Shown here piece by piece: positions 317 to 59,772 of a stretch of DNA of 59,772 nt (positions within the stretch are counted from its first letter, which is position 1; every line of letters begins with the position of its first letter). The position numbers were made by a program, and so were the translations under genes. The notes under the pieces are model-generated. The model did no database searches, was not told where the DNA came from, and saw nothing but the letters and a program-made list of their open reading frames with translations. Source of the DNA: an uncultured Eubacteriales bacterium (GTDB lineage Bacteria; Bacillota; Clostridia; Christensenellales; Aristaeellaceae); assembly GCA_902764565.1 (NCBI GenBank), contig CACWWM010000001.1, positions 1-59,772 on the forward strand. Direction: 5' to 3'.

Positions 317-464
317 AGAATATTATTGAATTTTGGGGAATATTTTGGCAATAATTGCGATTCATGATCTATGGCTTTTTCGCCGGTAAATTCTGGCATA
401 TATCCCCGTTTTCTGTATATTATGGCAAATAAAATACCCCAAATCATACATGATTCGGGGTATT

Positions 465-529
465 TGGCGGAGAAGGAGAGATTTGAACTCTCGCTACGAT
501 TCACTCGTACTACTCCCTTAGCAGAGGAG
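465..529 (-). other. 3' 65 nt of a tRNA-Ser(GCU) gene (anticodon arm, long variable arm, T arm, acceptor 3' strand, CCA); probable att core
   Basis: Minus strand reads CTCCT-CTGCTAA-GGGAG, TACGA-GTGAA-TCGTA, GAGAG-TTCAAAT-CTCTC, CTTCTCC-G-CCA. No D arm or 5' acceptor strand follows. Confidence 0.7.
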
Positions 530-565: not shown

Positions 566-590
566 CATTAAGCAACGGTTAAGCAATAGC
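566..590 (+). repeat. direct repeat copy 2 (CATTAAGCAACGGTTAAGCAATAGC)
   Basis: Matches 291..316 except for one indel and two substitutions. Abuts the integrase stop codon. Confidence 0.4.
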
Positions 591-3162: not shown

Positions 3163-3191
3163 ATTATATAGGCACGGCCTATTAAATACAA
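3163..3191 (-). promoter_or_regulatory. repressor promoter TTGTAT-17-TATAAT
   Basis: Read on the minus strand. Operator TAGGCACGGCCTA (3169..3181) sits in the spacer. Confidence 0.55.
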
Positions 3192-3256
3192 TGAAAAAAA
3201 GTTAGGCGTTACCTATTGACAAAGGCGATACCTAAGTTTATAATAAGGCATAGCCT
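3169..3256. promoter_or_regulatory. four operator palindromes AGGC-N3-RCCT (3170..3180, 3204..3214, 3223..3233, 3246..3256)
   Basis: AGGCACGGCCT, AGGCGTTACCT, AGGCGATACCT and AGGCATAGCCT lie between the divergent HTH genes. Confidence 0.65.
3216..3244 (+). promoter_or_regulatory. early rightward promoter, consensus TTGACA-17-TATAAT
   Basis: Exact hexamers at 3216..3221 and 3239..3244. Operators lie in the spacer and just downstream of the -10. Confidence 0.75.
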
Positions 3257-3280
3257 AACTTACAAAGCGGGGATTGAGAA

Positions 3281-3493
3281 ATGAGACAATGGCTGATCGA
3301 TTTGAGGGAGGCAAAGGGGTATTCGCAAAAGGCCGTATGTGACTATGCCGGTATCAGCCAGCCAACGTATTGGGAATATGAACGCGGTATTTCGACCCCA
3401 AAGCCTCTGAACGCTAAGAAAATTGGTCATTTCCTGGGATTTGACTGGACACGGTTTTATGAAGATGAAAAGAAAGAGGGTAAGCCAGCATGA
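3281..3493 (+). CDS. XRE-family HTH protein (Cro-like)
   Basis: 70 aa with HTH YSQKAVCDYAGISQPTYWEYERG. RBS GGGGATTGAGAA lies upstream. Confidence 0.8.
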   Translation: MRQWLIDLREAKGYSQKAVCDYAGISQPTYWEYERGISTPKPLNAKKIGHFLGFDWTRFYEDEKKEGKPA

Positions 3494-4468: not shown

Positions 4469-4544
4469 GGACAGGTAGCATAAATGGTGAGTGCGGCGGA
4501 CTGAAAATCCGCAGAGACTTGTTCGATTCAAGCCCTGTCCACCA
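4469..4544 (+). tRNA. tRNA-Phe(GAA)
   Basis: 76-nt cloverleaf folded by hand: GGACAGG/CCTGTCC acceptor, GCGGA-CTGAAAA-TCCGC, TTCGATT T loop, encoded CCA. Confidence 0.85.
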
Positions 4545-4662
4545 AAGCGGGATTTGCTTTCTTCCTTTCCTTCGTGGGCGCTATATCTCTAAATGCGAAA
4601 GGAAGCGCAGCCGGTGGCGTTATCGCCGGGGCGCTTCGGGGGCGGCATACCCCGAAGCCCGT

Positions 4663-4737
4663 GCCGAAATAGCTCAAAGGCAGAGCAGGCTATTTGTAAT
4701 GGTCAGGTTGTGGGTTCGATTCCCGCTTTCGGCTCCA
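4663..4737 (+). tRNA. tRNA-Thr(UGU)
   Basis: 75 nt: GCCGAAA/TTTCGGC acceptor, GCTC-AAAGGCA-GAGC D arm, anticodon loop TTTGTAA, GTGGG-TTCGATT-CCCGC, CCA. Confidence 0.85.
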
Positions 4738-5068
4738 AAGGCTATGCACAAGCCTATTCCAAGGAAGCGCACAGGAAGGGGGTGACGGATAATATGACCG
4801 CCATATACTGGTACATCGTGCGGCTGGAACGGCAGGCCGCATCCTGGCTGTTCCGGCACTATGGAAAAAAGATACCTGGGAAAGTATCATCCTTCTTCAT
4901 CTTCCAACAAAATATGACGTTCAGAAAAGAAAACTGTATGCGCTTTCATAGCGCGGCCACAGGGGATTAGATTTTGGGCGGATGATCCGCCCGCGCAACA
5001 CAATTCATGTGCAAAACGAGTTTCCCTGTGACACGCGGCGGCGAGGAGTGGCCGCGCCGCCGCGATTT

Positions 5069-5142
5069 GCGGATGTGGTGCAAAGGCAGCACAGCAGCCT
5101 TCCAAGCTGCGTATGCGGGTTCAATTCCCGTCATTCGCTCCA
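5069..5142 (+). tRNA. tRNA-Gly(UCC)
   Basis: 74 nt: GCGGATG/CATTCGC acceptor, GCAGC-CTTCCAA-GCTGC, GCGGG-TTCAATT-CCCGT, CCA. Confidence 0.85.
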
Positions 5143-45046: not shown

Positions 45047-45062
45047 GCCGATCAAGAACATC

Positions 45063-45086
45063 TGTGGGGGCCTTATGGCCCCCATA
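45063..45086 (+). promoter_or_regulatory. GC-rich hairpin TGTGGGGGCC-TTAT-GGCCCCCATA downstream of VR
   Basis: 10-bp stem with a 4-nt loop and no T run. Position is analogous to the target-site hairpin of the BPP-1 DGR. Confidence 0.5.
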
Positions 45087-45116
45087 ACCATTCCACCGTA
45101 AAGAGAGGGTTAGAAA

Positions 45117-45578
45117 ATGTCCGTTCCACCTGGTAATAGGGGCAAATCGCCCATGCAATTCATCGAAACCGGCGACAGGATAGAACAGAGGGCGATGGAA
45201 GTATGCAGGCGATGGCCCAAATCATTCTTTTTCATCATCACGCAGAAAACGATTCAGTTAGCATCCGAAATCTACGAACACGCATTGAAAGCCAATGCGA
45301 TTCTGCCGAAAACGGAGGAAGAACGAACTCTGCGGATTCTGGAATTGGAAAAGGCCCTGGGCGCGAATTACGCCTTTGCCCGGAAGATCGAAAGGGCCTA
45401 TTCCATGTTCCCCCTCTGCGGTGAAAAGAAGGACGTTTCCCCTGCTGCCATGCAGGAAAAGAGCAACCGCGTTTTGCAGGAGTTTATGACCTATTGCCTG
45501 GAGGAAGAAGATTCCTTGAAAGGCAATATCCATTACGCCCGCAGCCTTGACCTGACCTGCAAGCAGAAAAGCACCTGA
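45117..45578 (+). CDS. avd: DGR accessory variability determinant (Avd-like helical bundle protein)
   Basis: 153 aa, helical and basic, located between VR and TR as in BPP-1. RBS AAGAGAGGG. Confidence 0.6.
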   Translation: MSVPPGNRGKSPMQFIETGDRIEQRAMEVCRRWPKSFFFIITQKTIQLASEIYEHALKANAILPKTEEERTLRILELEKALGANYAFARKIERAYSMFPLCGEKKDVSPAAMQEKSNRVLQEFMTYCLEEEDSLKGNIHYARSLDLTCKQKST

Positions 45579-45604
45579 TTCCAATTTGGTTTATCTCTAC
45601 CCCT

Positions 45605-45743
45605 GCGAGGGCTCTGTCAACAACTGGTGGGAGCGCAGCCCGAATGTCACCAATTCCAACAACTTCCTCAATTGCAATACCAGCGGCAACCCGAACAACA
45701 ACAACAACGCGAACAACGCGAATGGCGTGTGCCTCGGATTCTA
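45605..45743 (+). repeat. DGR template region (TR)
   Basis: Non-coding copy of the VR carrying 17 AAY codons in the target frame. Ends with IMH-like GGCGTGTGCCTCGG. Confidence 0.9.
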
Positions 45744-45994
45744 TAAAGGATAATTCCTGGCCTGACCGAGTAAGCGAAAGCTGAAAGCCGTGCCTTTTTA
45801 TAGAAGGAGAGATAAACCATCCCGAAAGGGTAAATTTACATAGTCTTGATTCAAAGACGAACCCGATATGCGCGGGCGGACGCTTCTTGCATGGGCCATG
45901 GGTGGGCGTATTCCCAGGCTTTCATGCCTGACGCATTTAGCAGCCAGATTCACGCCAGACATTAGGCTGTACGGGGTGTTTTGGAGAGGATTCC

Positions 45995-47203
45995 ATGACG
46001 AGTAAAGAGAGGCATGAAGCCCGCTATCAACGGCGGCGGGCGGCACGAATGGCAAAGCGGGACGCGCGGGCACATGACGCGCTTTCCTTTGACGCCGTTT
46101 TCACTTATGCCAGATTATACCGTTCGGCCCTGGCCTGCTTCCGGGGCGTGAAATGGAAAGCGAGCGTACAGATATTCAAGTCCCATTGCGGCATCAACGT
46201 GGCGCGGCGGCTGCGGGAATTGGAGAACGGTATCTTCCGGCTGAAAAACTCGCCGGAGTTCAAAATCCGGGAACGCGGACGAGAGCGACGAATCAACAGC
46301 GTGCATATCGTTGACCGCGTACCGCAGAAATGCAATTCCAAATATGCTTTGAAGCCGGTTCTTCACCGTTCCCTGATCTATGATAACTACGCATCACAGG
46401 AAGGGAAAGGAACCGACAAGGCGCGGCGCAGGCTGAAAAGTATGTTGGAACGCCATATCCGCAAATACGGCATGACGGGCGGAATGATTATCTTCGACTT
46501 CCGCAAATACTTCGACAGCATCCCGCACGGGCTTATACGCTGGGTGCTGGGGCGCAATTTCGAGGATCGACGGATTATCGGCATGAACATGCGCATCATC
46601 CGGCAGGCGCGGGAGAAAGTGGGATTAGTCCTGGGAAGCGAAAATTCCCAGGACTTTGCTATTTCTGCTCCGAGCCTGCTTGATCACCGCATCAAAGAAG
46701 CGCTTCGCGTGGAGGGGTACGGAAGATACATGGATGACGGATGGATCATTCATCCCGATATTGAATACCTGAAAGCCGTGTTCCGGGAATTAAAGGATCT
46801 GTCAGCATGGCTTGGTTTCACACTGAACGAAAAGAAAAGCCGGATCATCCGGTTCGGTCAGCCCTTTTCCATGCTGAAACGCAAATACAGCTTCACGGAA
46901 ACAGGCGGGATCATCGTGCGGCCCGCGCGAGAAAGCGTTATCCGGGAGAGAAGGAAGCTGAAACGTCTGTACAGGCGTTACGTGGGCGGCTCAATAAGCT
47001 GGGAAACCGCCCTGAACTCTGTAAATGCCTGGAAATCCAGCCTGCACGGGTGCAAATGCTGGAAAATCATCCAATCAATCGAGGCACTATATAATCGCCT
47101 GTTCATCACGAACTGGCTTGAAGGAAAGGAGGAAGGTAAGCCTTGTTTTACAAGATCATATCCCAAGGCCAGATTATCGACGCTGCCCCAGGTGATCAAC
47201 TGA
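45995..47203 (+). CDS. DGR reverse transcriptase
   Basis: 402 aa with LGSENSQDF (DGR-type xGxxxSQ motif) and YMDDG. Adjacent to the TR. Confidence 0.85.
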   Translation: MTSKERHEARYQRRRAARMAKRDARAHDALSFDAVFTYARLYRSALACFRGVKWKASVQIFKSHCGINVARRLRELENGIFRLKNSPEFKIRERGRERRINSVHIVDRVPQKCNSKYALKPVLHRSLIYDNYASQEGKGTDKARRRLKSMLERHIRKYGMTGGMIIFDFRKYFDSIPHGLIRWVLGRNFEDRRIIGMNMRIIRQAREKVGLVLGSENSQDFAISAPSLLDHRIKEALRVEGYGRYMDDGWIIHPDIEYLKAVFRELKDLSAWLGFTLNEKKSRIIRFGQPFSMLKRKYSFTETGGIIVRPARESVIRERRKLKRLYRRYVGGSISWETALNSVNAWKSSLHGCKCWKIIQSIEALYNRLFITNWLEGKEEGKPCFTRSYPKARLSTLPQVIN

Positions 47204-49714: not shown

Positions 49715-50153
49715 AGGAATCACCCCGGACATGTTATGGAATTTCGCAAAAGTGTGCGTAGGGCTGGCCGCGCTGGTGATTCTGGTGTACAAGGTGATTG
49801 ACATTGCACGCAAGGAGCATGACCGCAAACAGCTAAAGGAACGCGGCCCGCAAAACGTCCTGGCGGACGAGATCAGCAAAAAGATCATGGCAGCACTGGA
49901 ACCGCGTTTCCAGGAGATTGACAGAAAGCTATCAACCGACAAGCTGCGGCTGGACGAACACGCCCAAAAGATGGCCATGTTGGGAGCGAAGCAAGACATG
50001 ATAGAGACGGGGCAGAAAGCAATATGCAAGGGCATGATGGCGATGCTCGACCATGAGATCAGCGGCGACAGTATTGACACGCTGCGGCAGGCACGGAAGG
50101 ACATCAACAACTACCTGATTGATAAAATAACGGGAAAGGAGATCACAGCATGA
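49701..50153 (+). CDS. single-TM coiled-coil protein (lysis accessory / holin-like)
   Basis: 150 aa. One N-terminal TM segment (FAKVCVGLAALVILVY), then a charged helical region. Confidence 0.4.
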   Translation: MEPIEGITPDMLWNFAKVCVGLAALVILVYKVIDIARKEHDRKQLKERGPQNVLADEISKKIMAALEPRFQEIDRKLSTDKLRLDEHAQKMAMLGAKQDMIETGQKAICKGMMAMLDHEISGDSIDTLRQARKDINNYLIDKITGKEITA

Positions 50154-50554
50154 AGAAATTGAAAAGCATCCAGGCCCTACTGCTTGCCCTGATTCTGTGC
50201 GTTTCCCTTGCTGGAGGCGTCCGGGCGGAGAATGGCGATGATGCGGCTATCTATGAGCCGCATTTCGTTCACGTCCATTACACGGAAGAAACCTTGCACG
50301 GCATCGTGGATGCACCGAGCGACGGCCCGTATTTTGTCCGTGTAACCTTCATTCTGCCGACGAACACGTTTTTTGTTATCGTTACGCCCGTTAAGGATTG
50401 GGAATTTTGCATCCGTATCGCCTGCGTTGCCGAATACGTTGCAATGGAGCTGGTGGACAGGCAGGATGCTTTTTGTCCAGGAACCTATACGGCGTATGAT
50501 GCCATTGGGATTCATGGCCTGCGTGAACTTGACCATCCTCCCAACAGGTGGTGA
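50150..50554 (+). CDS. secreted protein
   Basis: 134 aa with signal peptide MKKLKSIQALLLALILCVSLAGGVRA. Confidence 0.5.
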   Translation: MKKLKSIQALLLALILCVSLAGGVRAENGDDAAIYEPHFVHVHYTEETLHGIVDAPSDGPYFVRVTFILPTNTFFVIVTPVKDWEFCIRIACVAEYVAMELVDRQDAFCPGTYTAYDAIGIHGLRELDHPPNRW

Positions 50555-50559
50555 CAACG

Positions 50560-50955
50560 ATGGGTGAAAACCATTGCGTCATATGCTGGGAGATCATCCC
50601 GGAAGGGCGCCAGGTCTGCCCTATCTGCTGGGCGGCAACAATGAAAGACGCCACCACGGAAACACCAAAACAGACGAAGGATGTGAAAAGAACTATGATT
50701 AACTGGAAAGTACGCTTGGTGAATAAGAACTTCTGGCTTCAAGCCATTCCTGCCCTACTGCTGCTGATTCAGGTTGTGCTGAATGTGTTCGGCGTGACAC
50801 TCGATTTCGGCGACATCGGAAACAAACTGCTGGCCGTTGTCAATGCCGTTTTCGCTTTCCTGACAATCCTTGGCGTGGTCAACGACCCCACCACGGACGG
50901 CCTCGGCGACAGCAAACGTGCATTAACCTATCAGGAGCCCTATAAAGACGCATAA
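50560..50955 (+). CDS. holin (phi-LC3/LL-H family) with N-terminal zinc-ribbon extension; alternative internal start at 50695
   Basis: MINWKVRLVNKNFWLQAIPALLLLIQ...GVVNDPTTDGLGDS matches the LL-H holin pattern. The 45 aa upstream carry CVIC...CPIC. Confidence 0.65.
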   Translation: MGENHCVICWEIIPEGRQVCPICWAATMKDATTETPKQTKDVKRTMINWKVRLVNKNFWLQAIPALLLLIQVVLNVFGVTLDFGDIGNKLLAVVNAVFAFLTILGVVNDPTTDGLGDSKRALTYQEPYKDA

Positions 50956-50962
50956 TCAACCC

Positions 50963-51009
50963 GCCCGCCGCGCCTGGATGCAGGAAATGCGCGGCGGGCT
51001 TTTCTTTTT
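50963..51009 (+). terminator. intrinsic terminator GCCCGCCGCGC-N15-GCGCGGCGGGC followed by TTTTCTTTTT
   Basis: 11-bp GC stem plus T run after the holin gene. Confidence 0.8.
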
Positions 51010-51044
51010 CACCTGTATAATTGTCATATTTTCGGGGGTGTAAA

Positions 51045-51650
51045 ATGAAAACCGTACAGCCCATTCGAGATTTGGACACGCTGCAAAAATGTTATGAAAT
51101 CGCCCGAGAACACGATCAAAAAAAGCTGAAAGGAGAAGTAAGCTGGGAATTGATTCTTCTGGTGGGCTTTAATACGTCCCTGCGGGTGAGCGATTTCCGG
51201 CGCTTCCGGGTATCGGATTTGCGCGGGAAGGACTATGCACAGATTCAGGCAAAGAAAACCGGGAAGGAAGCGCGCATCCTGATCAATCCTTGGGCGCGGC
51301 GGGAGATAAACCGTCTGCTTGCCGGGCGAAAGGGAGAAGAATATATCTTCCAATCCCGCCAGGAGGACAGGGCCAACCACAAAGCCCGCCCTGTCACAAG
51401 GCAAAGGGTATATCAGATCATGAATACCATTGCAAAGCGCGCCGGGATCGAGGAAAGGATCGGGTGCCATACGCTGCGGAAAACCTTCGGCTATCACTAT
51501 TACAAAATGACCGGGGACGTGGTGAGCCTGCAAAGGATTCTCTGCCACAGCTACCAACGGGAAACACTGGTATACATCGGCGTCGTGCAGGAGAATATCG
51601 ACGAAAGCCTGATGAAGCTGAACATGTTGACCGGGAGGAAAAGGGCATGA
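51045..51650 (+). CDS. small tyrosine recombinase (catalytic domain only)
   Basis: 201 aa with NTSLRVSDF, HTLRKTFG and LCHSYQRETLVYI. No N-terminal core-binding domain. Confidence 0.75.
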   Translation: MKTVQPIRDLDTLQKCYEIAREHDQKKLKGEVSWELILLVGFNTSLRVSDFRRFRVSDLRGKDYAQIQAKKTGKEARILINPWARREINRLLAGRKGEEYIFQSRQEDRANHKARPVTRQRVYQIMNTIAKRAGIEERIGCHTLRKTFGYHYYKMTGDVVSLQRILCHSYQRETLVYIGVVQENIDESLMKLNMLTGRKRA

Positions 51651-52201
51651 ACCAATACAAAACCATCTATGCAGACCCGCCCTGGATGGAGCATGGAGGC
51701 GGGAAAATACAAAGGGGCGCAGATCGACACTATCCGCTTATGAAAACGCGGGATATTATGGCCCTTCCTGTGCGCGACCTGATCCACCCGGAAGGATGCC
51801 ATTTATACCTATGGACAACAAATAATTTCCTTCCCGATGCGCTGAAAGTGCTGGAAGCCTGGGGCTTTGAATACGTCACTCTGATAACCTGGATGAAGGA
51901 TCGGCAAGGGCTGGGGCAGTATTACCGGGGCCTGACAGAGCATTGCATATTCGCCAGGACGAAAAAGAAACTGCCCTACCGGCTGGAGGACGGAAAACGG
52001 ATGCAGGGCGTTACCGGATTTTTCGAGAAAAAACAGCAGCACAGCATGAAGCCCGAGGAAATGCGCCGCATGATCGAGCGCGTAAGTTATGGCCCACGCA
52101 TAGAATTGTTTGCCCGCGATCATCATCCTGGATGGGACGTATGGGGAAATGAAGTGGACGGCATATCATTCGGGGGGGGGGGGTATTGTGATCCTGGATA
52201 A
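51647..52201 (+). CDS. MT-A70 family DNA N6-adenine methyltransferase
   Basis: 184 aa with IYADPPW. ATGA overlap with the recombinase gene. Confidence 0.8.
   Translation: MNQYKTIYADPPWMEHGGGKIQRGADRHYPLMKTRDIMALPVRDLIHPEGCHLYLWTTNNFLPDALKVLEAWGFEYVTLITWMKDRQGLGQYYRGLTEHCIFARTKKKLPYRLEDGKRMQGVTGFFEKKQQHSMKPEEMRRMIERVSYGPRIELFARDHHPGWDVWGNEVDGISFGGGGYCDPG
52172..52183 (+). repeat. G12 homopolymer in the last codons of the methyltransferase
   Basis: Encodes GGGG five codons before the stop. Confidence 0.9.
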
Positions 52202-52223
52202 AAACGCAAGCGCTTGCGGATTT

Positions 52224-52251
52224 GGGCGGCATGAGCCGCCCTTCTTTTTTT
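52224..52251 (+). terminator. intrinsic terminator GGGCGGC-ATGA-GCCGCCC followed by TTCTTTTTTT
   Basis: End of the rightward transcription unit. Preceded by palindrome CGCAAGCGCTTGCG (52205..52218). Confidence 0.75.
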
Positions 52252-52574
52252 GTACGCCCCGCGCTTTGTCCTTCGGAAAGCGCGGGTTTCGGGCGGCGAT
52301 TACTAATCGCTTCGCCCTTAGCCTCGTTTCACTCGGCGCTATTTGCGCGCGCGAATATTCTACCGACGGAAAGGGGGCAGTTTTCAGAGGGCGGGGCGGC
52401 TTAGTTGTCATATTATGGCGCGGTAAAACACAGCCCCAAATACGAGCCCAAAAACAGGTGCATAAAGTGGAAGCGATTTTTCGGAAACCCATTTTACACA
52501 ACTCCCCATTATGTCAAGTACAGAGACGGCGCGGTTATCCCCAAACCATCAACACGGCGCGCGAATAAACCGCG

Positions 52575-52612
52575 AAAAAGAAAGCAACCTGCAAGGATTC
52601 CTTACAAGTTGC
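52575..52612 (-). terminator. imperfect 14-bp hairpin plus T run (minus strand)
   Basis: Minus strand reads GCAACTTGTAAGGAATCCTTGCAGGTTGC then TTTCTTTTT, just downstream of the RHH gene. Confidence 0.55.
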
Positions 52613-52634
52613 CCGATGGAATGATCCTGTTGCG

Positions 52635-52835
52635 TTATGGCGCATCCTCTTTTTTCTGCGGATCGTTGCGGCTGATATACTCCCGAACAAGCTGCTTGAT
52701 GAAGCCCTGGAAGCTGGGCTGATCGTCCAGCACGGCGATAATATCCGCGTCGGTTTTCATGTTCAGCTTCATGCCGTAGTGCTTGGACTTCTCCTTATCA
52801 TAGCGCATTTGGGTTATGGATCGCTGCGTTGGCAT
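52635..52835 (-). CDS. ribbon-helix-helix (CopG/Arc-like) DNA-binding protein
   Basis: 66 aa: MPTQRSITQMRYDKEKSKHYGMKLNMKTDADIIAVLDDQPSFQGFIKQLVREYI. RBS AAAGGGGG. Confidence 0.55.
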   Translation of the reverse strand: MPTQRSITQMRYDKEKSKHYGMKLNMKTDADIIAVLDDQPSFQGFIKQLVREYISRNDPQKKEDAP

Positions 52836-52860
52836 GGTGTTGGCCCCCTTTCTGCGCCCA

Positions 52861-52889
52861 TTATACATGAGGTTCAACCGTTCTGTCAA
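52861..52889 (-). promoter_or_regulatory. promoter variant TTGACA-17-GTATAA with one GGTTGAACC operator in the spacer
   Basis: Same -35/operator arrangement as the three large cassettes. Lies at the 3' end of the upstream gene, ahead of the RHH gene. Confidence 0.4.
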
Positions 52890-53436
52890 ACTTCTCTCCC
52901 CCTTCCGGTTCTGCCGCGCATGAATGTTCCTGGTCATAATAGCAATGTTCCAGCCAGAATGAATAAACGGGCCTGTACACTTTCCCATCCATGATTACAG
53001 GCTGACAAAAGGCATGATCATTTTCCCCCTTGAAAAGCACATAGAGGAAAAACATCCCTTCCACGCCGGACGCTTCTTCATAATTCAGCGTACTGTTCAA
53101 TTCATCCACGCGGTAGTGTATTTCCATGCTGTCCTTGTCCACGCGGCGAAGGGCAACGGGGGAACCAACGGCGATTTGTTCCGCCCATTTCATTTTTTGC
53201 ACGGCCTCCGAAAGCGCTCCGTCCAGCTTTTCCGCATCTTCTTCGGTGGCATATTCCAGGAATCCGCCGCCAAATATTGCATCCGTGCAATACTGATTCT
53301 GTGCTTTTAGAATGACATTCAAGAACGTGCATCCCGGAAATGATTTGCTGGATTCCGTTTTCACTTCAATAAGCCCGTATTCCTTATACGGCATAGCGCC
53401 CTTGTTGGCGCGCTCCATGATCTGCTGCAATGTCAT
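52861..53436 (-). CDS. hypothetical protein
   Basis: 191 aa with RBS GGAAAGGGG. Confidence 0.55.
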   Translation of the reverse strand: MTLQQIMERANKGAMPYKEYGLIEVKTESSKSFPGCTFLNVILKAQNQYCTDAIFGGGFLEYATEEDAEKLDGALSEAVQKMKWAEQIAVGSPVALRRVDKDSMEIHYRVDELNSTLNYEEASGVEGMFFLYVLFKGENDHAFCQPVIMDGKVYRPVYSFWLEHCYYDQEHSCAAEPEGGEKFDRTVEPHV

Positions 53437-53451
53437 TTCTTGCCCCTTTCC

Positions 53452-53474
53452 GCCCGCGTATGAAGCCCGCGGGC
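53452..53474 (-). repeat. class I intercistronic hairpin GCCCGCG-N9-CGCGGGC
   Basis: Abuts the RBS of the gene starting at 53436. Copies at 54216..54238 and 57675..57697. Confidence 0.6.
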
Positions 53475-53487
53475 TGGCTCTTTTCTA

Positions 53488-53925
53488 TTATCGCGCGAGG
53501 AAGTAACTGCACCATGAATCCATAAGGGCGTCGTAATAGGTGTATTGGCTTTCGACGGATTTTCCCAGGTGAACGATGATGCTGTTGCAATGGCAGGCCA
53601 GCTTATCATCCGACAGCGCTTTCTTCAGGCAGGCCCACAGCTTATAGTACAGCGCTTGGCCGCGCTGCTTTTCTTCGCTGTCAACCACGACAACGGAATA
53701 ATCTCCGCCATCCTTCCCGGCACAATTCAGAAAATCATCCTGAATGTTGTTCCGCTTGATGTGGCGGTACAGGTTTATCAGCATGACCATATCCCCGGCG
53801 GGGATTTCCGCCGGGGATCCGTCTGGCTGATTCGTGCTTTTGATCTGCACGGGGCCGTCATGCTCTGACTGGTAAAGGCTCAAAGTACCCTGATTATTCA
53901 CAGAGAACGAAAAGAAATGATTCAT
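53488..53925 (-). CDS. hypothetical protein
   Basis: 145 aa with RBS AAAGGAGA. Confidence 0.55.
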   Translation of the reverse strand: MNHFFSFSVNNQGTLSLYQSEHDGPVQIKSTNQPDGSPAEIPAGDMVMLINLYRHIKRNNIQDDFLNCAGKDGGDYSVVVVDSEEKQRGQALYYKLWACLKKALSDDKLACHCNSIIVHLGKSVESQYTYYDALMDSWCSYFLAR

Positions 53926-53939
53926 GCCCGTATCTCCTT

Positions 53940-54203
53940 TCAGCGCGCGAGGATGGCAAACTGGTATTCATCCGTGTAATCGGTTGCGATGATCTCCAAT
54001 TCGGTATAATAGCCGTGTTCCTTGTACCATTCAACGGTTTCTAAGGTACGATCCAGAGAACCGCAGAAAGGGCAGTTGATTAACGTATGATCGAGAATGA
54101 CATCATCCCCGCGCCGGTAGCCGTGCCCGGTAGGCTTTGCCAGTTCTTCCTTGGGGATTCCGAAGTATTCACTGGCTGCCGGGATCTTCGCGCCATTGTA
54201 CAT
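53940..54203 (-). CDS. hypothetical protein
   Basis: 87 aa with RBS AAGGAGG. Confidence 0.55.
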   Translation of the reverse strand: MYNGAKIPAASEYFGIPKEELAKPTGHGYRRGDDVILDHTLINCPFCGSLDRTLETVEWYKEHGYYTELEIIATDYTDEYQFAILAR

Positions 54204-54215
54204 TGTTACCTCCTT

Positions 54216-54238
54216 GCCCGCGTATGAGGCCCGCGGGC
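54216..54238 (-). repeat. class I intercistronic hairpin
   Basis: GCCCGCG-TATGAGGCC-CGCGGGC, directly upstream of the RBS for 54203. Confidence 0.6.
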
Positions 54239-54252
54239 GGGCGCTGTGCGGT

Positions 54253-54489
54253 CTATCCGAAGTAGCAATAGAGAATCAGCGGGGCCGTGATAAGCCCCAG
54301 GACGGCCCCACAGAGGGCCATAGCGCCGCCGCTCATGGGCTGATCCGATTTCCATGCAATCCACCGGGCGGCGGCTTGTGCGCGGCCCAGGAGGCGCAGG
54401 AAAACGCCGGGCGCAGCGTGGCGCGGCTCATAGGGCTGGGCAGCGTGGCGCGGCATGTAGTGGGTGGTGTTGGCTGGGATGGTAAACAT
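54253..54489 (-). CDS. small membrane protein
   Basis: 78 aa with C-terminal TM segment GGAMALCGAVLGLITAPLILYCYF. Confidence 0.5.
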   Translation of the reverse strand: MFTIPANTTHYMPRHAAQPYEPRHAAPGVFLRLLGRAQAAARWIAWKSDQPMSGGAMALCGAVLGLITAPLILYCYFG

Positions 54490-54568
54490 GTTTCTTGCTC
54501 CTTTCTTGTCCTGCCATCATCAGGCCGGGTAGGACAATTCCCGGCGACGGCCCGCAGGCCGTTTCGGC

Positions 54569-54772
54569 TCATAATTCAAAATCAATCGTGATGGTATCTA
54601 TCCCGTTATTGGCCTGGATCGTTTCGCCTGGGCTGTACTGGTTCATGCTTTCTATGTACATCCAGGTGTTTTCTTTCGTGTTCGCGTGGTGGTAATAGGC
54701 CGCATAAGTGTGCAATCTTTTTGTTTCCCTGCACGGTATCTTGCTTTCGTCGATGTAGCTACTGGCTGTCAT
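54569..54772 (-). CDS. hypothetical protein
   Basis: 67 aa with RBS GAAAGGA. Confidence 0.45.
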   Translation of the reverse strand: MTASSYIDESKIPCRETKRLHTYAAYYHHANTKENTWMYIESMNQYSPGETIQANNGIDTITIDFEL

Positions 54773-54817
54773 GGCTGGCGTCCTTTCTGCCCTCGTGACC
54801 TCCGGGGCGGGGTCGTT

Positions 54818-55408
54818 TCACATCATGCCGATCTGCTTGGCGTAGGTGTCCAGCTTTTCGCGGGCCGCTTCCCATGCTTTCTTGCTTTCATCGGTGGGAT
54901 CGTCGGAATAGGCGTGGAATGTTTCGCACTCTTTATCCTGGAGCGCTGAAAGCGTTTCCTGCTGATTGAAGGGCTGGCAGGGATCGAAGCCCTGGGCCTG
55001 GATGTTCTTTGTCCAGTTGTTCAAAAAGCTGTCCAGGTCATGCAGCATATAAGAATTATACCGGAGGCGTCCGTTTACTTGGTGGAATACCTCTTGATAC
55101 ATGGTGCCGTGCGGCCCGATCCCGTCCTGCTGGAATGTCAGGGGGCAAATGCTCCCGTCGGCGTCGTTGACGGAAAAGGTCATATCCGGGTCGCGCATCA
55201 GGTCGCCGCATTGGGTGTAATAGTGCATCATGGAATAAACCGGGTGGCCTTGGGCGTCACAATACCCCAGGTATTCAATGGATAGGGGCATATAATCGCC
55301 GCCGTCAACCGTGAAGCGGAAGTGCTTTTCTTCCTGCTGATCCACGGCCAGGAGATAGGGCTTGATCCGCTTGTAATTGGCTTTCCCGAATCTGATCTTG
55401 ATGTTCAT
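54818..55408 (-). CDS. hypothetical protein
   Basis: 196 aa. Start moved to MNIKIRF because the ORF-track start lies inside the promoter cassette. RBS GGGAGGAAAG. Confidence 0.55.
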   Translation of the reverse strand: MNIKIRFGKANYKRIKPYLLAVDQQEEKHFRFTVDGGDYMPLSIEYLGYCDAQGHPVYSMMHYYTQCGDLMRDPDMTFSVNDADGSICPLTFQQDGIGPHGTMYQEVFHQVNGRLRYNSYMLHDLDSFLNNWTKNIQAQGFDPCQPFNQQETLSALQDKECETFHAYSDDPTDESKKAWEAAREKLDTYAKQIGMM

Positions 55409-55434
55409 GTTCTTTCCTCCCTGTTTATAAAATA

Positions 55435-55481
55435 GGTTCAACCGACAATAATATTATATTCCCGTCGGTTGAACCTGTCAA
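55435..55481 (-). promoter_or_regulatory. promoter-operator cassette A: TTGACA-17-TATAAT flanked by inverted GGTTCAACCGAC / GTCGGTTGAACC
   Basis: Exact consensus hexamers on the minus strand. One operator fills the spacer and one lies 6 nt downstream of the -10. An A/T-rich UP-like tract lies upstream. Confidence 0.7.
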
Positions 55482-55500
55482 GCACTTTTGAAAAATTTTT

Positions 55501-55860
55501 TTACATGGCGGCGTAAAGGTCAGCGGCCCGCATGGTAAAATGGGCGTCCGGCTTTCGGTGTATCTGTTCCCCGGCTTCGTCCAGTTCCCCGGCGTAAATG
55601 TCGATGATGGCGGCGCTGTCCAGATAATGATGATCCAGATAGTACCGCAAAACAGGATAGTGATTCAGCAGATAGGCGGTGCCGGGCGTGAAGCCGTCAA
55701 GGCTGATCGTGTCGCGGTATGATCCGAAGGAATAGAAGCCGTTCCCTTCCGCATGGCTGGACGCGGCCAGGATGAAGGAACGCGGGCGGCTTTCCTGGGC
55801 CGCCCTGTTCTGGTCAAGGTAGGAAAGAAGCTCGTCGAAGGTCATTTGAATATGTTCCAT
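55501..55860 (-). CDS. hypothetical protein
   Basis: 119 aa with RBS GGAAGGAGG. Confidence 0.55.
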   Translation of the reverse strand: MEHIQMTFDELLSYLDQNRAAQESRPRSFILAASSHAEGNGFYSFGSYRDTISLDGFTPGTAYLLNHYPVLRYYLDHHYLDSAAIIDIYAGELDEAGEQIHRKPDAHFTMRAADLYAAM

Positions 55861-55884
55861 GGTGCAATCCTCCTTCCTGCCGCT

Positions 55885-56394
55885 TCACAGGCGGCAGATA
55901 TGTTCCGCGCGGTAGTCCTTGCAGTTGATTAACAGGGAATAGAGGGGGCCGTATATGGTGGCGGCGTAATTCATCAGGTTATTCCATTGGGCAGCGTTTT
56001 CCCGGAAGCTCTGCATGGCCGTCTGATACTCTGCTATCTCTTTTTCCAGCGCTTCGATCTGGCCGTTTATCCTGGTCAGGCTGGCGCGCCGGTTATCCAG
56101 GGACGCTATTTCAACGTCGATCCAGTCCTGCCCCTTCACACAGAAATGCACGGAAATGGTGGTGGAGTATGTGCCAGTTTTTCCAACGAAAACATGGCTG
56201 TATTCCGGGAACATGGCTTGCAGTTCATCGTCCAGCCGCTTGGTGATATAGCGGCCATTCAGGGCGGTCAGACGGCGCAAGAGATTGATTTTTTCGCGGT
56301 ATCGGCTGATCCTCCGCAGGGCCGCGCTTTCGGCCTGATCCATGGTTTCCGGGTCTATGGTGAGATAGTCCACATATAGCTGCTTCTGGTGCAT
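55885..56394 (-). CDS. hypothetical protein
   Basis: 169 aa with RBS GAAAGGGG. Confidence 0.55.
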   Translation of the reverse strand: MHQKQLYVDYLTIDPETMDQAESAALRRISRYREKINLLRRLTALNGRYITKRLDDELQAMFPEYSHVFVGKTGTYSTTISVHFCVKGQDWIDVEIASLDNRRASLTRINGQIEALEKEIAEYQTAMQSFRENAAQWNNLMNYAATIYGPLYSLLINCKDYRAEHICRL

Positions 56395-56417
56395 GGTTTA
56401 ATCCCCTTTCTGTGGTG

Positions 56418-56490
56418 TTGGCGGTTTTCCGCGACGGCCCCGCGGGGGCCGTTTCGAGCCGTGACCGGCGGCCCATCGTCAGGCGGATTT
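56418..56490 (-). repeat. class II 73-nt intercistronic repeat (two GC hairpins)
   Basis: About 5 mismatches versus 57287..57359. Minus strand contains ACGGCCCC-CGC-GGGGCCGT and GCGG-AAAA-CCGC. Confidence 0.6.
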
Positions 56491-56718
56491 TTTAGCGGCC
56501 TGGGCCGCGTGCTTTTCCTGGGCGGCGCGTATTCTGGCCGCTTCCTGGGCTTCCCGGCGGTAGCTGTCCATTCTGTGCTTTTCCGCTATCCTGGCGTCGT
56601 TCTCTTTCCGGCAGCGCGCCCGGCGGCGGGCCTTGTTCGCGGCCTGGATTATTGGAATCAGCACACAAGCGGCGATAATGCCAGACAGGAAAAGGATCAA
56701 TGCTGTGGTGACGTTCAT
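56479..56718 (-). CDS. small TM protein with basic tail
   Basis: 79 aa with TM segment ALILFLSGIIAACVLIPII. Confidence 0.5.
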   Translation of the reverse strand: MNVTTALILFLSGIIAACVLIPIIQAANKARRRARCRKENDARIAEKHRMDSYRREAQEAARIRAAQEKHAAQAAKKSA

Positions 56719-56741
56719 TTTCCCGCTTCCCTTCTTTGATA

Positions 56742-56788
56742 GGTTTAACCGACGGCTTTATTATAGCGCCGTCGGTTGAACCTGTCAA
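56742..56788 (-). promoter_or_regulatory. promoter-operator cassette B (TTGACA-17-TATAAT)
   Basis: Same architecture as cassette A. The downstream operator has one change (GGTTTAACCGAC). Confidence 0.7.
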
Positions 56789-56817
56789 GCCTTTCAACAA
56801 ATTTTTTCATGCGATTA

Positions 56818-57015
56818 TCAGAATACGGCGATCTTGTATTCTGTCCCGTCCAGTTCAATGATGGCCCATCCTGTCCATCCGGCATCATAATCCAGCCATG
56901 CGTCGCAATCGTTCATGACGTGGGCAATCCCGTCAGAGAATCCGGCGCGGTGGCCGATGATGTAGGACGCCGCCGCAATCAGCAGCGCGGCGAAGATTGC
57001 AAGAGCTTTTTTCAT
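56818..57015 (-). CDS. small secreted/membrane protein
   Basis: 65 aa starting MKKALAIFAALLIAAASYIIG. RBS GAAAGGGG. Confidence 0.5.
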   Translation of the reverse strand: MKKALAIFAALLIAAASYIIGHRAGFSDGIAHVMNDCDAWLDYDAGWTGWAIIELDGTEYKIAVF

Positions 57016-57029
57016 GGTGTTTTCCCCTT

Positions 57030-57263
57030 TCAAATGTCCAGCGTTTCCAGGTCGAAAGCGGGGGCGGCCCATGCTGTCATTTCCCCTGCTTCCCATGCCC
57101 GGCGATCCTCCCGGATCATGGCGTTGTAAGTCTGATAATCCACAAGGCCCAGATTCCAAAGAACAGTCACAGCCTCCCATAGCTTGTTATAGCTGCCCTG
57201 GCTGTCTGCCGTTCCTTCCTTGGCAAGGTTCCGCATGGTTTCAATTAGCTTTTTCTTGGTCAT
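57030..57263 (-). CDS. hypothetical protein
   Basis: 77 aa with RBS ACGGAGGAAAA. Confidence 0.5.
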   Translation of the reverse strand: MTKKKLIETMRNLAKEGTADSQGSYNKLWEAVTVLWNLGLVDYQTYNAMIREDRRAWEAGEMTAWAAPAFDLETLDI

Positions 57264-57286
57264 GGTGTTTTCCTCCGTTCTCTGTA

Positions 57287-57359
57287 TTGGCGGTTTTCCG
57301 CGACGGCCCCGCGGGGGCCGTTTCGATTCGTGACCGGCGAATCATCGTCAGGCGGATTT
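57287..57359 (-). repeat. class II 73-nt intercistronic repeat
   Basis: See 56418..56490. A diverged third copy lies at about 58768..58845. Confidence 0.6.
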
Positions 57360-57661
57360 CAAGGATGAATGTACCTTTCTAAGTGCTTCATAACAGGATC
57401 GAAGATTGTAACGATAGCAAGTTGATCGCCGTGCGTCGTGCGTTTCGGGGTGCTGATAATGTGGCAAATGCCGCCCGGCTGGCGCTCCACCCATTTTTTG
57501 AGGCGTTCACATTCTGCAAATAGCGTTTCGGCGTATGTGTACGGTGTGGCCTTTTTGATGGCAACGGTATATCCAGCCGCGCATCTTTCGTCCTTTCCAT
57601 CAAAACAATAGTAAAAGCTGGAGCGCTCCATCATCTCTTTGACGTATTTCGGAATAACCAT
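57359..57661 (-). CDS. hypothetical protein
   Basis: 100 aa with RBS GAAAGGGG. Confidence 0.5.
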   Translation of the reverse strand: MVIPKYVKEMMERSSFYYCFDGKDERCAAGYTVAIKKATPYTYAETLFAECERLKKWVERQPGGICHIISTPKRTTHGDQLAIVTIFDPVMKHLERYIHP

Positions 57662-57674
57662 AAATCCCCTTTCT

Positions 57675-57697
57675 GCCCGCGTACAATGCCCGCGGGC
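57675..57697 (-). repeat. class I intercistronic hairpin
   Basis: GCCCGCG-TACAATGCC-CGCGGGC, upstream of the RBS for 57661. Confidence 0.6.
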
Positions 57698-57724
57698 GTG
57701 GCGGTTGAAATGGTTTCCGGGCGT

Positions 57725-58741
57725 TTACGCGGCCCGGCGGCGTTTCGGCTGGCAGGGGCTTTCCTTCGCCCTGGCGAATGTTTCCTGCACTTTCAGCGCG
57801 GCGCGGTAGGCTTTCCAGTTCAGGCCCTTCACCCAGGCCCCCAGGGACGGCGCATAGTAGAATCCGGCTTCCTTCACGATGGCACGCGCGGCGTCCGTCG
57901 GGATACTGTCAAAAATAATCATCGTGCGGTCATAGGTGGCGGAAAATTCGATGGAATAGCCCAGGCCCGTGATTTTCGTCCCGATCCAGGTTTTTTCCGG
58001 GACGGGGCCATGCGCCTGTTTATCAGGATCAGCAGCGCGAAGGGCTCTCCGTTCTTCCCGGCGGCGTTCCTTTTCCGCGGCGGCTTCCGCCTGGGCGATC
58101 CGTTCCGCTTCCTGGGCGGCGCACAGCGCCGGGATGAAATGGGGGTTTTCCTGGTCGATGGTGATGCTGGCGGTTTTTCCGTCCGGCAGGGTGATTTCTG
58201 CAATCATGCTCCCGGCGTACTGGTGCCAGGTGCAAGCGAAGGTTTCACCGGCGGGGGTGGTCATGCTGTGCGGGGTGAATACGGGGGCGGCGTCCTGGGT
58301 GGGGGTTTCCTGTGTTTCGGGGGATGAAATGTTTTCGGGGCGTGCGTCCTTTTCCGGCGGCGTGGTTTCCGGCTGAAACTTCATCATGGCGTCGGCCAGC
58401 TGATCCAGGTGGGCCATGTGGATTCTGTTCGTGTAAACGTCGGCCTTTTCCGCGGCGGCTTCGTCCAGCGCGTTTTCGATGCTGGCGGCCCAGGTGGCAG
58501 CCCGGCGGCCGATCCTTCCGTCCCAGGCGTGACGGTTTACCAGGGAAGCGACGGCCACGACGGCGGCTTCATATCCCACGGCGTCAACCAGCTTTTTGAT
58601 GGTGTCGGTGGGCGTGCTTTCTCTGGTTTCGCCGTAGATGGTTTCCAGGGTTTTCACGTCGGCGCGGATCGTGTTCCGCAGGGTAAACCAGGCTTCCCGG
58701 TTTTCAGCAATCAGGGCGGTGATGGTTTCGATGGTTTTCAT
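57725..58741 (-). CDS. DUF3849-like protein
   Basis: 338 aa. VASLVNRHAWDGRIGRRAATWA resembles the DWDGRIS..N..WA signature of DUF3849 seen in conjugative-element polyvalent proteins. Confidence 0.5.
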   Translation of the reverse strand: MKTIETITALIAENREAWFTLRNTIRADVKTLETIYGETRESTPTDTIKKLVDAVGYEAAVVAVASLVNRHAWDGRIGRRAATWAASIENALDEAAAEKADVYTNRIHMAHLDQLADAMMKFQPETTPPEKDARPENISSPETQETPTQDAAPVFTPHSMTTPAGETFACTWHQYAGSMIAEITLPDGKTASITIDQENPHFIPALCAAQEAERIAQAEAAAEKERRREERRALRAADPDKQAHGPVPEKTWIGTKITGLGYSIEFSATYDRTMIIFDSIPTDAARAIVKEAGFYYAPSLGAWVKGLNWKAYRAALKVQETFARAKESPCQPKRRRAA

Positions 58742-58841
58742 GTTCTTTTCCTCCGTTCGTTTTTGTGGTGTTGGCGGCTATCCGCGACGCTTTCAGCGTT
58801 TCGCCCAGGGGGCCACCCTGGGCATCATCAGGCGGAAGGGG

Positions 58842-59351
58842 TTACACCGCGGCGGGAAGTTCTTCCCGGTCTGCCATGGTCACGCGCTGGCTTCCATACA
58901 TCCCGCGGATTTCGTCAAGGGAAAACTTCTTTTTGCCCATCTTCCTATACCCTTCTTCGTGCCAGTACCACGCTTGCTTGTTGCCGGAAAACTTATAACC
59001 GGCGGCTTTCAGGGCTTCCTTGTGCTGGCGGGTTTCGCCGGTGATCCACAACCATTCCCCGCACAGCTCGATCATGATCCCTTGCAGGGTGACAACGGCC
59101 ATGACGGCGGCACGGAAAGCGGCGGGGCATTCGCGTTCCCTGGGCTGGTAGGTTTCGCCCTGGGCGTTTACCTTGGGAAGCCAGGCGGAAAGGGCGTCAT
59201 AGTCGTTATTGACCTGGATCATGGTCTTTTCGTCGCCGCCCAGGTCGGGGTGATACTTCTTCGCCAGCCGCTTATATTCGGCTTTCAGCTGATCCATGGT
59301 CTGGCAATCCTGGAAGAATACGGTCACGGGGCGCTTGCTGGTGTTCATCAT
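58842..59351 (-). CDS. J-domain (DnaJ-like) protein
   Basis: 169 aa with QLKAEYKRLAKKYHPDLGGD (HPD motif). RBS GGGAGG. First gene after cassette C. Confidence 0.7.
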   Translation of the reverse strand: MMNTSKRPVTVFFQDCQTMDQLKAEYKRLAKKYHPDLGGDEKTMIQVNNDYDALSAWLPKVNAQGETYQPRERECPAAFRAAVMAVVTLQGIMIELCGEWLWITGETRQHKEALKAAGYKFSGNKQAWYWHEEGYRKMGKKKFSLDEIRGMYGSQRVTMADREELPAAV

Positions 59352-59403
59352 GGTTTTTACCTCCCTGTTTTCGTTATTTGGTGTTGGCTGGTGTTGGTGT
59401 GTC

Positions 59404-59450
59404 GGTTCAACCGACGCCCATAGTATAACGCCGTCGGTTGAACCTGTCAA
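59404..59450 (-). promoter_or_regulatory. promoter-operator cassette C (TTGACA-17-TATACT)
   Basis: Same inverted GGTTCAACCGAC / GTCGGTTGAACC pair as cassettes A and B. Confidence 0.65.
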
Positions 59451-59772
59451 CCCCATTTTTCACTTTTTTTCAAAAAAATTTTTCGTCTGCCGTCGCTGAT
59501 CCCCTGGAAGCCTTGCGCCGCCTTGCTTTGCAGCCCTTCCCCCTTGCCCCATATCGCGCGCAATAGGGGGAAAACCGCCGCCCTGGCCGCCGGGCAGAGG
59601 AAGCCCAGCAGCACCGCCGCCACGATCCACCCCGCCGCGGCGGCCATCCTCCGCCGGGAAGCTGGCCCAGGTGATCCCCCTGCCTGGACGCCGTCACCCT
59701 GGCCGCCCGGGCAGAGGAAGCCCGGCAGCACCGCCGCCACGATCCACCCCGCCAGGGCCGCCCGGCGGAGGA
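59447..59772 (-). CDS. partial membrane protein with internal tandem duplication (start may lie outside the window)
   Basis: GWIVAAVL.GFLCP occurs twice. DNA repeat units at about 59580..59635 and 59697..59753. Confidence 0.4.
   Translation of the reverse strand, partial: LRRAALAGWIVAAVLPGFLCPGGQGDGVQAGGSPGPASRRRMAAAAGWIVAAVLLGFLCPAARAAVFPLLRAIWGKGEGLQSKAAQGFQGISDGRRKIFLKKSEKWG

Follow-up and report, generated by a model that had tools for sequence, protein, structure and literature searches.

Shared-operator promoters and a candidate terminal autorepressor in the leftward arm of a temperate rumen phage genome

The stretch of DNA analysed here, 59,772 nucleotides (nt) of contig CACWWM010000001.1 and hereafter called the window, corresponds according to family scans to the genome of a temperate siphophage, and the final 7 kilobases (kb) of this 59.8-kb genome constitute a leftward arm of 14 genes followed by the gene of a 66-amino-acid (66-aa) protein, the candidate regulator. 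Four predicted promoters that share a palindromic motif serve this arm, which raises the question of what the motif is for and which protein, of the phage or of its host, reads it. Taken as a whole, the locus is best explained by a phage-encoded autorepressor circuit acting on the shared-operator promoters of this one arm, a reading that we consider probable from the anatomy of the sequence, its conservation and its co-variation with the terminal 66-aa protein. The promoters, named cassettes A to C and promoter D, are located as follows.

59401..59480, minus strand: cassette C, the first promoter of the arm
56742..56818, minus strand: cassette B
55435..55511, minus strand: cassette A
52860..52889, minus strand: promoter D, the regulator's own promoter

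Read on the minus strand, the three cassettes follow one design, consisting of an A/T tract, TTGACA, GGTTCAACCGAC, 5 nt, TATAAT or TATACT, 6 nt and GTCGGTT(G/A)AACC. Cassette C displays an A/T tract at 59480-59451, the -35 hexamer TTGACA at 59450-59445, a first operator site (site 1, GGTTCAACCGAC) at 59444-59433, the -10 hexamer TATACT at 59427-59422 and a second site (site 2, GTCGGTTGAACCGAC), a perfect palindrome of 15 base pairs (bp), at 59415-59401. The same elements are found in cassette B (-35 at 56788-56783, site 1 at 56782-56771, -10 TATAAT at 56765-56760, and site 2, GTCGGTTAAACC, one base off the core, at 56753-56742) and in cassette A (-35 at 55481-55476, site 1 at 55475-55464, -10 TATAAT at 55458-55453, and site 2, GTCGGTTGAACC, at 55446-55435). 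Site 1 fills the spacer beside the -35 and site 2 covers the predicted start site, with a centre-to-centre distance of 32 bp in all three cassettes of the window, close to three helical turns, which places both sites on the same face of the DNA. Promoter D (TTGACA-gaacGGTTGAACCtcatg-TATAAT) lies 24 nt upstream of the terminal gene and contains in its 18-nt spacer a single GGTTGAACC core at 52879-52871; it overlaps the 3' end of the upstream gene, whose stop codon (52861-52863) falls within its -10.

An earlier note on this DNA had described three cassettes and a fourth variant, and all four are present where it placed them, on the minus strand. Two of its readings need correction. The palindrome it gave as GGTT-S-AACC exists as a core and is part of a longer 15-bp palindrome, GTCGGTT-S-AACCGAC, which only the downstream site of cassette C matches in full; at the upstream site the -35 hexamer takes the place of the outer half. 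In cassette B the downstream arm, which the earlier note read as ending in GAACC, is actually GTCGGTTAAACC, a G being found at this position in the close relative L124. Its distinction between this palindrome and the CI/Cro operators holds, the latter consisting of four TAGGC-N3-RCCTA-type sites at 3169-3257.

GGTTSAACC occurs 6 times in the window against 0.50 expected, a count reached by none of 100 shuffles, and all 6 occurrences lie within the four elements. The 18-mer TTGACAGGTTCAACCGAC, which includes the -35, has exactly three occurrences, and the 15-bp GTCGGTTSAACCGAC, searched with up to 3 mismatches, gives 6 matches against 1.19 expected, all of them inside cassettes A-C. In a sigma-70 scan of positions 50000-59772 the four elements were the only matches of 11 or 12 out of 12 hexamer positions (12/12, 12/12, 11/12 and 12/12), with spacers of 17 nt in the three cassettes and 18 nt in the fourth element. 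Hexamers close to consensus and a spacing within one nucleotide of 17, as expected of promoters of the sigma-70/sigma-A type, are thus found in the window and are conserved in its relatives.

By pattern and protein searches, at least six more lineages with this cassette design were recovered (L124-127, L001/L136, L128-130, L165/L166, L167 and L169/170). When nine cassettes from four of these lineages are aligned, the 18 nt formed by the -35 and site 1 are invariant, as is site 2; the 5 nt before the -10 and the 6 nt after it change freely, the -10 itself retains T1, A2, T3 and T6, and the upstream A/T tract persists. When the arm is compared with those of L136 and L128, nucleotide similarity is limited to the cassettes, to the regulator gene together with its promoter and, for L128 alone, to the hammerhead ribozymes described below and a single 60-nt stretch at 56975-57034, and the protein-coding cargo is almost wholly different; with the close relative L124, the breaks in homology coincide with cassettes and hammerheads. 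At the level of sequence comparison, the regulatory chassis is conserved and its cargo exchangeable. A search of IMG/VR with the 15-nt pattern TTGACAGGTTSAACC returned mostly single chance matches and was uninformative.

Which protein reads the operator can be approached through the same relatives. The candidate gene and the element that follows it are located as follows.

52635..52835, minus strand: 66-aa candidate repressor with a pattern resembling ribbon-helix-helix (RHH) proteins
52582..52614, minus strand: terminator-like hairpin with a T-run, closing the arm

A homolog of the terminal protein, 63-93% identical, is encoded at the end of the arm in all lineages that bear the cassette and for which the retrieved DNA extends that far; it is the last gene there or is followed by only one or two small open reading frames (ORFs) (L167, L169, L170). 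Its own consensus promoter always carries a partial operator copy in the spacer: GGTTGAACC in the window, GGTTAAACC in L136, GTCGGTT in L128 and GTT(G/C)AACCGAC in L167 and L169. The comparison of related phages that the earlier note envisaged for the cassettes reveals that the operator co-varies with residues of the terminal protein predicted to form a strand. The L168 protein, with 63% overall identity, the same as for L128 and L169, has TRRYGFKLN instead of SKHYGM in this strand, and the L168 cassettes keep the architecture with a different repeat (GTAGGTTTGTACCTGC / GCAGGTGCAAACCTAC, and GTAGGTTGTACCTC in the regulator's own promoter). In L137, the protein is 55% identical with the strand TRPIKLKFN, the operator is TTCGGTGTGTCCCGTG / CACGGGACACACCGAA, and the regulator's promoter contains a half-site with one base deleted. 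Proteins with S(K/R)HYGMKLN pair with the operator GGTTSAACCGAC, so that three natural pairs of strand and operator are available, SKHYGM/GGTTSAACCGAC, TRRYGF/GTAGGTTTGYACCTGC and TRPIKL/CGGTGTGTCCCG. More distant members of the family likewise terminate operons with consensus promoters holding other palindromes, such as the two copies of TAAGTATATACTTA in the cultured Butyrivibrio phage Ceridwen.

Two other phage proteins were considered as binders and rejected. The CI of L128 is 25% identical to that of the window and has the operator TTGGCG-N3-CGCCAA, yet its phage carries the identical GGTTSAACC cassette. The small recombinase encoded beside the arm is 74% identical in L168 though the repeat differs, and only 35-41% identical in L128, L167 and L169 though the repeat is the same. 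Co-occurrence, the operator copy in its own promoter and the co-variation of its strand fit the 66-aa protein as the binder, and from these comparisons it is most likely the operator-binding repressor. The second repressor circuit that the earlier note postulated apart from CI/Cro is in this way supported by comparative evidence, namely the exclusion of CI and the co-occurrence and co-variation of the terminal protein.

The 66-aa protein is predicted to comprise an N-terminal helix, an extended segment SKHYGMKLNM and two further helices. An AlphaFold2 monomer with a predicted local distance difference test (pLDDT) score of 80 places helices at 4-16, 30-38 and 42-56 and the extended segment at 17-29, which falls exactly on the co-varying residues; the model has the RHH order with an extra N-terminal helix and is compatible with an RHH fold. 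A 15-sequence profile aligned weakly but sensibly, across both helices, with chains of the CopG family in the Protein Data Bank (PDB). The family is large, with at least 2,092 clusters at 50% identity (E <= 1e-3) and at least 5,309 clusters at 90% identity (E <= 1e-5). Among its best 120 clusters, 119 are without Pfam domain and none has an informative name, the one Pfam exception being PF22147.2 on a longer protein of 112 aa. Regarding the earlier claim of an RHH autoregulator, the autoregulator part gains support from comparison, and the RHH fold is unconfirmed by Pfam, by deep profiles against the PDB or by Foldseek; an RHH-like protein is plausible by inference from the predicted structure.

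Several observations weigh against a phage-encoded RHH autorepressor and have to be set beside this evidence. The 66-aa protein has no Pfam match. The CopG-family chains 6iya and 7etr were the sole PDB matches of the 15-sequence profile and are weak (E = 0.43 and 1), an 81-sequence profile retrieved no RHH protein from the PDB, hhalign against unverified copies of the Arc and CopG sequences gave nothing, and Foldseek with two AlphaFold2 monomers (pLDDT 66 and 80) found no PDB match. In the promoter of the regulator itself, no more than a 9-bp core or a half-site of the operator is present, and the protein may consequently control its own gene weakly or not at all. Lastly, family scans detected no recognised anti-defence gene in the window's own arm, whose presumed function hence relies on relatives and weak domain matches.

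The unverified fold of the phage candidate also leaves some room for a regulator encoded by the host, which would bind the palindromes and wire the arm into host physiology; in its shortness and symmetry the motif resembles many operator sites of bacteria. The same design nevertheless recurs with entirely different repeats in related phages from samples of the same kind, and each different repeat accompanies an altered strand in the phage protein and a copy in that protein's promoter. Such changes of the repeat, tracking a phage protein, are unexpected for a conserved host factor, and we regard this explanation as improbable.

The promoters could alternatively be constitutive promoters of morons or lysogenic-conversion genes, the terminal protein being unrelated to them and, for instance, antitoxin-like or of partition type. 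The arm is located at the end of the prophage, where morons are common, and the cargo of the window includes no proven anti-defence gene. This would leave unexplained the two invariant palindromes placed exactly over the polymerase-binding region, as well as the operator copy in the promoter of the terminal gene and the co-variation, which makes it a poor candidate, with a quite small probability.

All relatives examined have a tyrosine-recombinase-like gene of 197-233 aa next to the arm, the gene content is mosaic, and the breakpoints of homology fall at cassettes and hammerheads. The repeats might accordingly be recombination sites of this small protein (51021-51650 in the window), through which cassettes would be exchanged in the manner of integron attC or shufflon sites. 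The recombinase does not co-vary with the repeat (74% identity where the repeat is different, 35-41% where it is the same), and the sites coincide exactly with consensus promoter hexamers. Moreover, the 17-nt gap between the two arms far exceeds the known cores of tyrosine recombinases. Homologous recombination at conserved regulatory sequences explains the mosaicism equally well, as proposed for the promoter early stem-loop (PeSL) elements of T4-type phages (PMC2839356), and recombination sites appear very unlikely.

Least probable of all, and to be given hardly any weight, is a role of the inverted repeat as a DNA hairpin or cruciform, either a single-strand promoter of the Frpo type of the F plasmid or a structural promoter signal: as single-stranded DNA, each cassette can indeed form a 12-bp stem whose loop contains the -10 (-15 to -18 kcal/mol, z-scores of -4.9 to -6.7), and cassettes A and B extend to imperfect arms of 21-26 nt, but this good folding is a trivial consequence of two inverted copies of the site. 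The 12 stem pairs never vary and are therefore without structural signal, the 8 inner pairs are not preserved and lack compensating substitutions, with covariation below that of shuffled controls, each arm is itself palindromic, which is required of a dimer site and not of a hairpin, the regulator's promoter with its single site cannot form the hairpin, and a tailed phage with double-stranded DNA has no obvious single-stranded entry stage. The Frpo-type promoter in particular was rejected, as only the 12-bp operator arms pair, with the -35 outside the stem, the -10 in the loop and the inner pairs unconserved.

For the phage-encoded autorepressor circuit, we infer binding, stoichiometry, timing and cargo function as follows. 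The four elements would be promoters of the host RNA polymerase (sigma-70/sigma-A type) forming one regulon, each strong promoter being bracketed by two palindromic operator copies to which the repressor would bind as dimers or tetramers, as RHH proteins do. Upon entry of the phage into a cell free of repressor, all promoters would fire and the variable early accessory cargo, probably anti-defence or establishment genes, would be expressed. The repressor would be supplied by read-through transcripts as well as by its own promoter; its gene is followed by the sole terminator-like hairpin with a T-run on the arm's strand, and no terminators were found between the gene blocks of the arm, which makes read-through into the regulator gene plausible. 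Accumulation of the repressor would then turn off the three strong promoters, in a burst followed by shutoff, and in a lysogen the repressor would hold them silent, while weaker repression is expected of promoter D with its single partial site in the spacer. The hammerheads between the genes would cut the polycistronic RNAs into shorter messenger RNAs.

Known phage repressors provide the first term of comparison. Arc and Mnt of the P22 immI region are RHH proteins that act as dimers of dimers on palindromic operators overlapping strong promoters, and Arc is made from a promoter that it shuts off itself. The immI region differs by its single divergent promoter pair controlling an antirepressor instead of a multi-promoter cargo arm, and hhalign found no sequence similarity of the terminal protein to Arc, compared here again through an unverified copy of its sequence.

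A close parallel in organisation is the Reg576 regulon of the Bacillus pumilus plasmid p576 (EGeRS2), in which four strong promoters carry operators on one or both sides, the gene of the RHH repressor stands behind the most weakly repressed of them, and a variable establishment cargo that includes ardC is expressed transiently after DNA entry (PMC6294495, PMC8708921). Several strong promoters sharing an operator, together with a repressor gene whose operator-bearing promoter is of a weaker configuration, are also found in the window and its relatives. As regards the cargo, ArdC is present in the arm of L128, the window having only DnaJ-like, weak DUF3849 and DUF6908 proteins. The two systems differ in their carrier, a conjugative plasmid for p576 and a phage here, in the position of the regulator as terminal gene of the arm, in the presence of hammerheads and in the operator itself: the operator of Reg576 consists of two heptamers in direct repeat (TTATCCC-N2-TTATCCC) and is placed before the -35 and beyond the start site, unlike the palindromes found here in the spacer and over the predicted start site. 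PDB profile searches with the terminal protein did not return the chain of Reg576, whose crystal structure was reported by its authors. Given the different operator type and the lack of detected similarity, the present circuit is analogous to Reg576 and not a member of its family.

Aca14, a 66-aa RHH protein among the Aca autorepressors of anti-CRISPR operons, represses two operons (PMC13551039). It resembles the terminal protein by its size, by an inverted repeat overlapping the promoter, found here at the regulator's own operon and at the neighbouring ones, and, as predicted for the arm, by being encoded with anti-defence genes and by the control of its own and a neighbouring operon by one regulator. 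Compared by description only, Aca14 is predicted to extend the RHH core by a helical segment, and the model of the terminal protein likewise has a helix at its N terminus. Its repeat is AT-rich and overlaps the -10, and the circuit of the window comprises four promoters and about 15 genes. No known acr gene turned up in the family scans of the arm, an anti-CRISPR library not having been searched. The PeSLs, cassettes of 50-70 bp with an early promoter and a terminator stem-loop that flank variable orphan genes (PMC2839356, PMC4122927), are likewise repeated conserved regulatory cassettes at which related genomes break; they differ in having no known dedicated repressor, as opposed to the operator pair found here, where ribozymes are the accompanying RNA elements. 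The type of circuit is known from plasmids and anti-CRISPR operons; here it would operate in a phage, with an uncharacterised regulator family.

If the proposed circuit is true, burst-then-shutoff control by a small RHH-type repressor extends to a multi-promoter arm in a temperate phage of uncultured rumen Clostridia, and the about 15 genes of the arm, together with the different genes of its relatives, become candidates for counter-defence. It would also provide a sequence rule for such arms, a consensus promoter with paired palindromes, a small terminal regulator with a weaker copy and intergenic hammerheads, while the natural pairs of operators and strand residues form a ready set for the study of changes in DNA specificity in this family. 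Going further, the 66-aa protein might be the founding example of a very large family of phage regulators controlling variable early anti-defence arms in Firmicutes phages, a proposal that we put forward tentatively, as possible and somewhat doubtful. Should it hold, the family, the operator-bearing promoters and the hammerheads would together act as a three-part signpost to new anti-defence genes, and specificity could be reprogrammed through a few strand residues.

Cassette C is located upstream of genes 1-5, cassette B of genes 6-8, cassette A of genes 9-14 and promoter D of the 66-aa gene. The cargo is arranged as follows.

58842..59351, minus strand: gene 1, 169 aa, DnaJ-like J domain (below the Pfam cut-off), phrog_15863
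56818..58741, minus strand: genes 2-5
55501..56718, minus strand: genes 6-8, behind cassette B
52861..55408, minus strand: genes 9-14, behind cassette A

Gene 2 (338 aa) has a weak DUF3849 match and a primase-C-like end, genes 3 and 4 encode 100 aa and 77 aa, and gene 5 a predicted membrane protein or lipoprotein of 65 aa. Gene 6 (79 aa) has a transmembrane segment and a charged tail, genes 7 and 8 encode 169 aa and 119 aa, gene 9 is a DUF6908 protein of 196 aa, and genes 10-14 (67, 78, 87, 145 and 191 aa) are without family matches in the scans. The DnaJ-like domain, DUF6908 and the weak DUF3849 match show that not all of the about 15 orphan genes of the earlier note are orphans. The arms of the relatives are more telling, with ArdC (ArdcN and MPTase-PolyVal) and DUF3849 in L128, and DUF3560, DUF2786 with DUF7168 and a BRCT-like protein in L136. 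ArdC-N and MPTase domains have been described among the polyvalent conflict proteins of phages and conjugative elements (PMC5512222). These domains, the position beside the integrase and the ribozymes suggest an early anti-defence or establishment arm, and judged from sequence we consider the chances about even that the window's own arm is one.

Four hammerhead ribozymes or candidates are intercalated between the genes of the arm.

58770..58837, minus strand: hammerhead candidate of type I topology between genes 1 and 2 (pattern search and covariation)
57286..57357, minus strand: hammerhead candidate of type I topology between genes 3 and 4 (pattern search and covariation)
56417..56488, minus strand: hammerhead candidate of type I topology between genes 6 and 7 (pattern search and covariation)
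54505..54569, minus strand: type II hammerhead between genes 10 and 11 (Rfam RF02276, 39.8 bits against a gathering score of 37)

The type I candidates consist of the two copies of a 114-nt intergenic repeat and of a third, related element at 58770-58837, with the layout UCCGC-CUGANGA-U-stem II-GAAAC-stem III-GUC-GCGGA. All three have a short stem I of 5 bp and an extra U after the CUGANGA core, and in Rfam they remain below thresholds, with only a partial type II match (E = 4.6). Further copies are carried by L124, L128 and L137, and in an alignment that includes them the core does not vary, pairing extends to 97.5% of cells, both partners are changed in 7 pairs, none of 500 shuffles reaches the observed covariation score, and a pseudoknot between loop II and the tail is mostly kept. 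The CUGANGA core, GAAA, a UH cleavage site and three stems that define hammerheads are all present, and self-cleavage is predicted. Perreault et al. described clustered hammerheads of mixed type that flank single genes or short blocks near prophage integrases, with one example flanking ardA (PMC3088659); nothing essential differs from those found here and, such clusters having already been described, the hammerheads of the arm are of a known kind.

Two other short elements recur in these arms. A GC hairpin (GCCCGCGGGC-N7-GCGGGC) is located immediately before the ribosome-binding site of three genes, at 53443-53474, 54207-54238 and 57666-57697 read on the minus strand; it is 88-91% conserved in phage L001 (approximately 155-192 and 511-558) though the flanking genes differ, one copy retains the stem through a G-U wobble, and no Rfam family matches it. 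A conserved post-stop junction motif, AACGCC(G/C)CCCGA(T/A)CATTTCA, is repeated behind unrelated genes in the arms of L001 (for instance on the minus strand near 3790, 1935 and 570) and L128, and may be another boundary sequence for module exchange. Homologs of the regulator, approximately 80% identical, are also encountered on the bacterial contigs L132-L135, each standing by itself with a fucose isomerase gene on one side and a GGDEF gene on the other; these uninformative cases have no recognisable cassette and no phage genes nearby, and may be prophage remnants or domesticated copies.

Beyond the arm, family scans identified a lambda-type large terminase, a portal, a tape-measure protein, an amidase and a holin in the window, besides the following genes, for each of which they also provided the assignment.

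590-1681, minus strand: integrase
2768-3151, minus strand: CI-like helix-turn-helix protein
3281-3493, plus strand: Cro-like helix-turn-helix protein

A megablast of the arm against the phages of GenBank gave no match. Where the region is contiguous (L001, L124 and L128), the arm directly follows the integrase, an attachment region containing a tRNA-like 3' fragment and a GC-rich tandem-repeat tract. A 3' fragment resembling a tRNA or transfer-messenger RNA (tmRNA) adjoins the integrase in the window (454-524) and in L001 (6101-6171), with 86% identity between the two, and is probably the attachment core. In L168 (3446-4216), the arm directly adjoins smpB within a bacterial contig, suggesting integration at the tmRNA locus. 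The GC-rich tandem repeats, of approximately 40-117 bp per unit and without ORF support, separate the attachment region from the first cassette in all lineages (59590-59762 in the window, about 5150-5800 in L001, about 3640-4720 in L128) and could function as an origin, as a centromere-like array or as some other binding array. Assemblies tend to break in them, as the window terminates there and L128 has Ns; since the window matches the tRNA-like fragment at 454-524 and ends inside the repeat, it is most likely a circular or excised genome with the assembly break in the repeats.

Convergent with the arm are the short tyrosine-recombinase-like protein (51021-51650, plus strand, 209 aa), which has the catalytic domain only and whose counterparts in all relatives examined measure 197-233 aa, and an MT-A70 methylase, the two genes spanning 51021-52201 on the plus strand. 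Three tRNA genes, Phe-GAA, Thr-TGT and Gly-TCC, lie just downstream of the Cro-like gene (4469-5142, plus strand). A reverse transcriptase (45995-47203, plus strand) adjoins, on its downstream side, a tail protein of 2,177 aa with a C-terminal DUF6273 (region 38513-47203), an arrangement that looks like a diversity-generating retroelement targeting the tail fibre, and the same pair of genes is also found in L167, L169 and L170.

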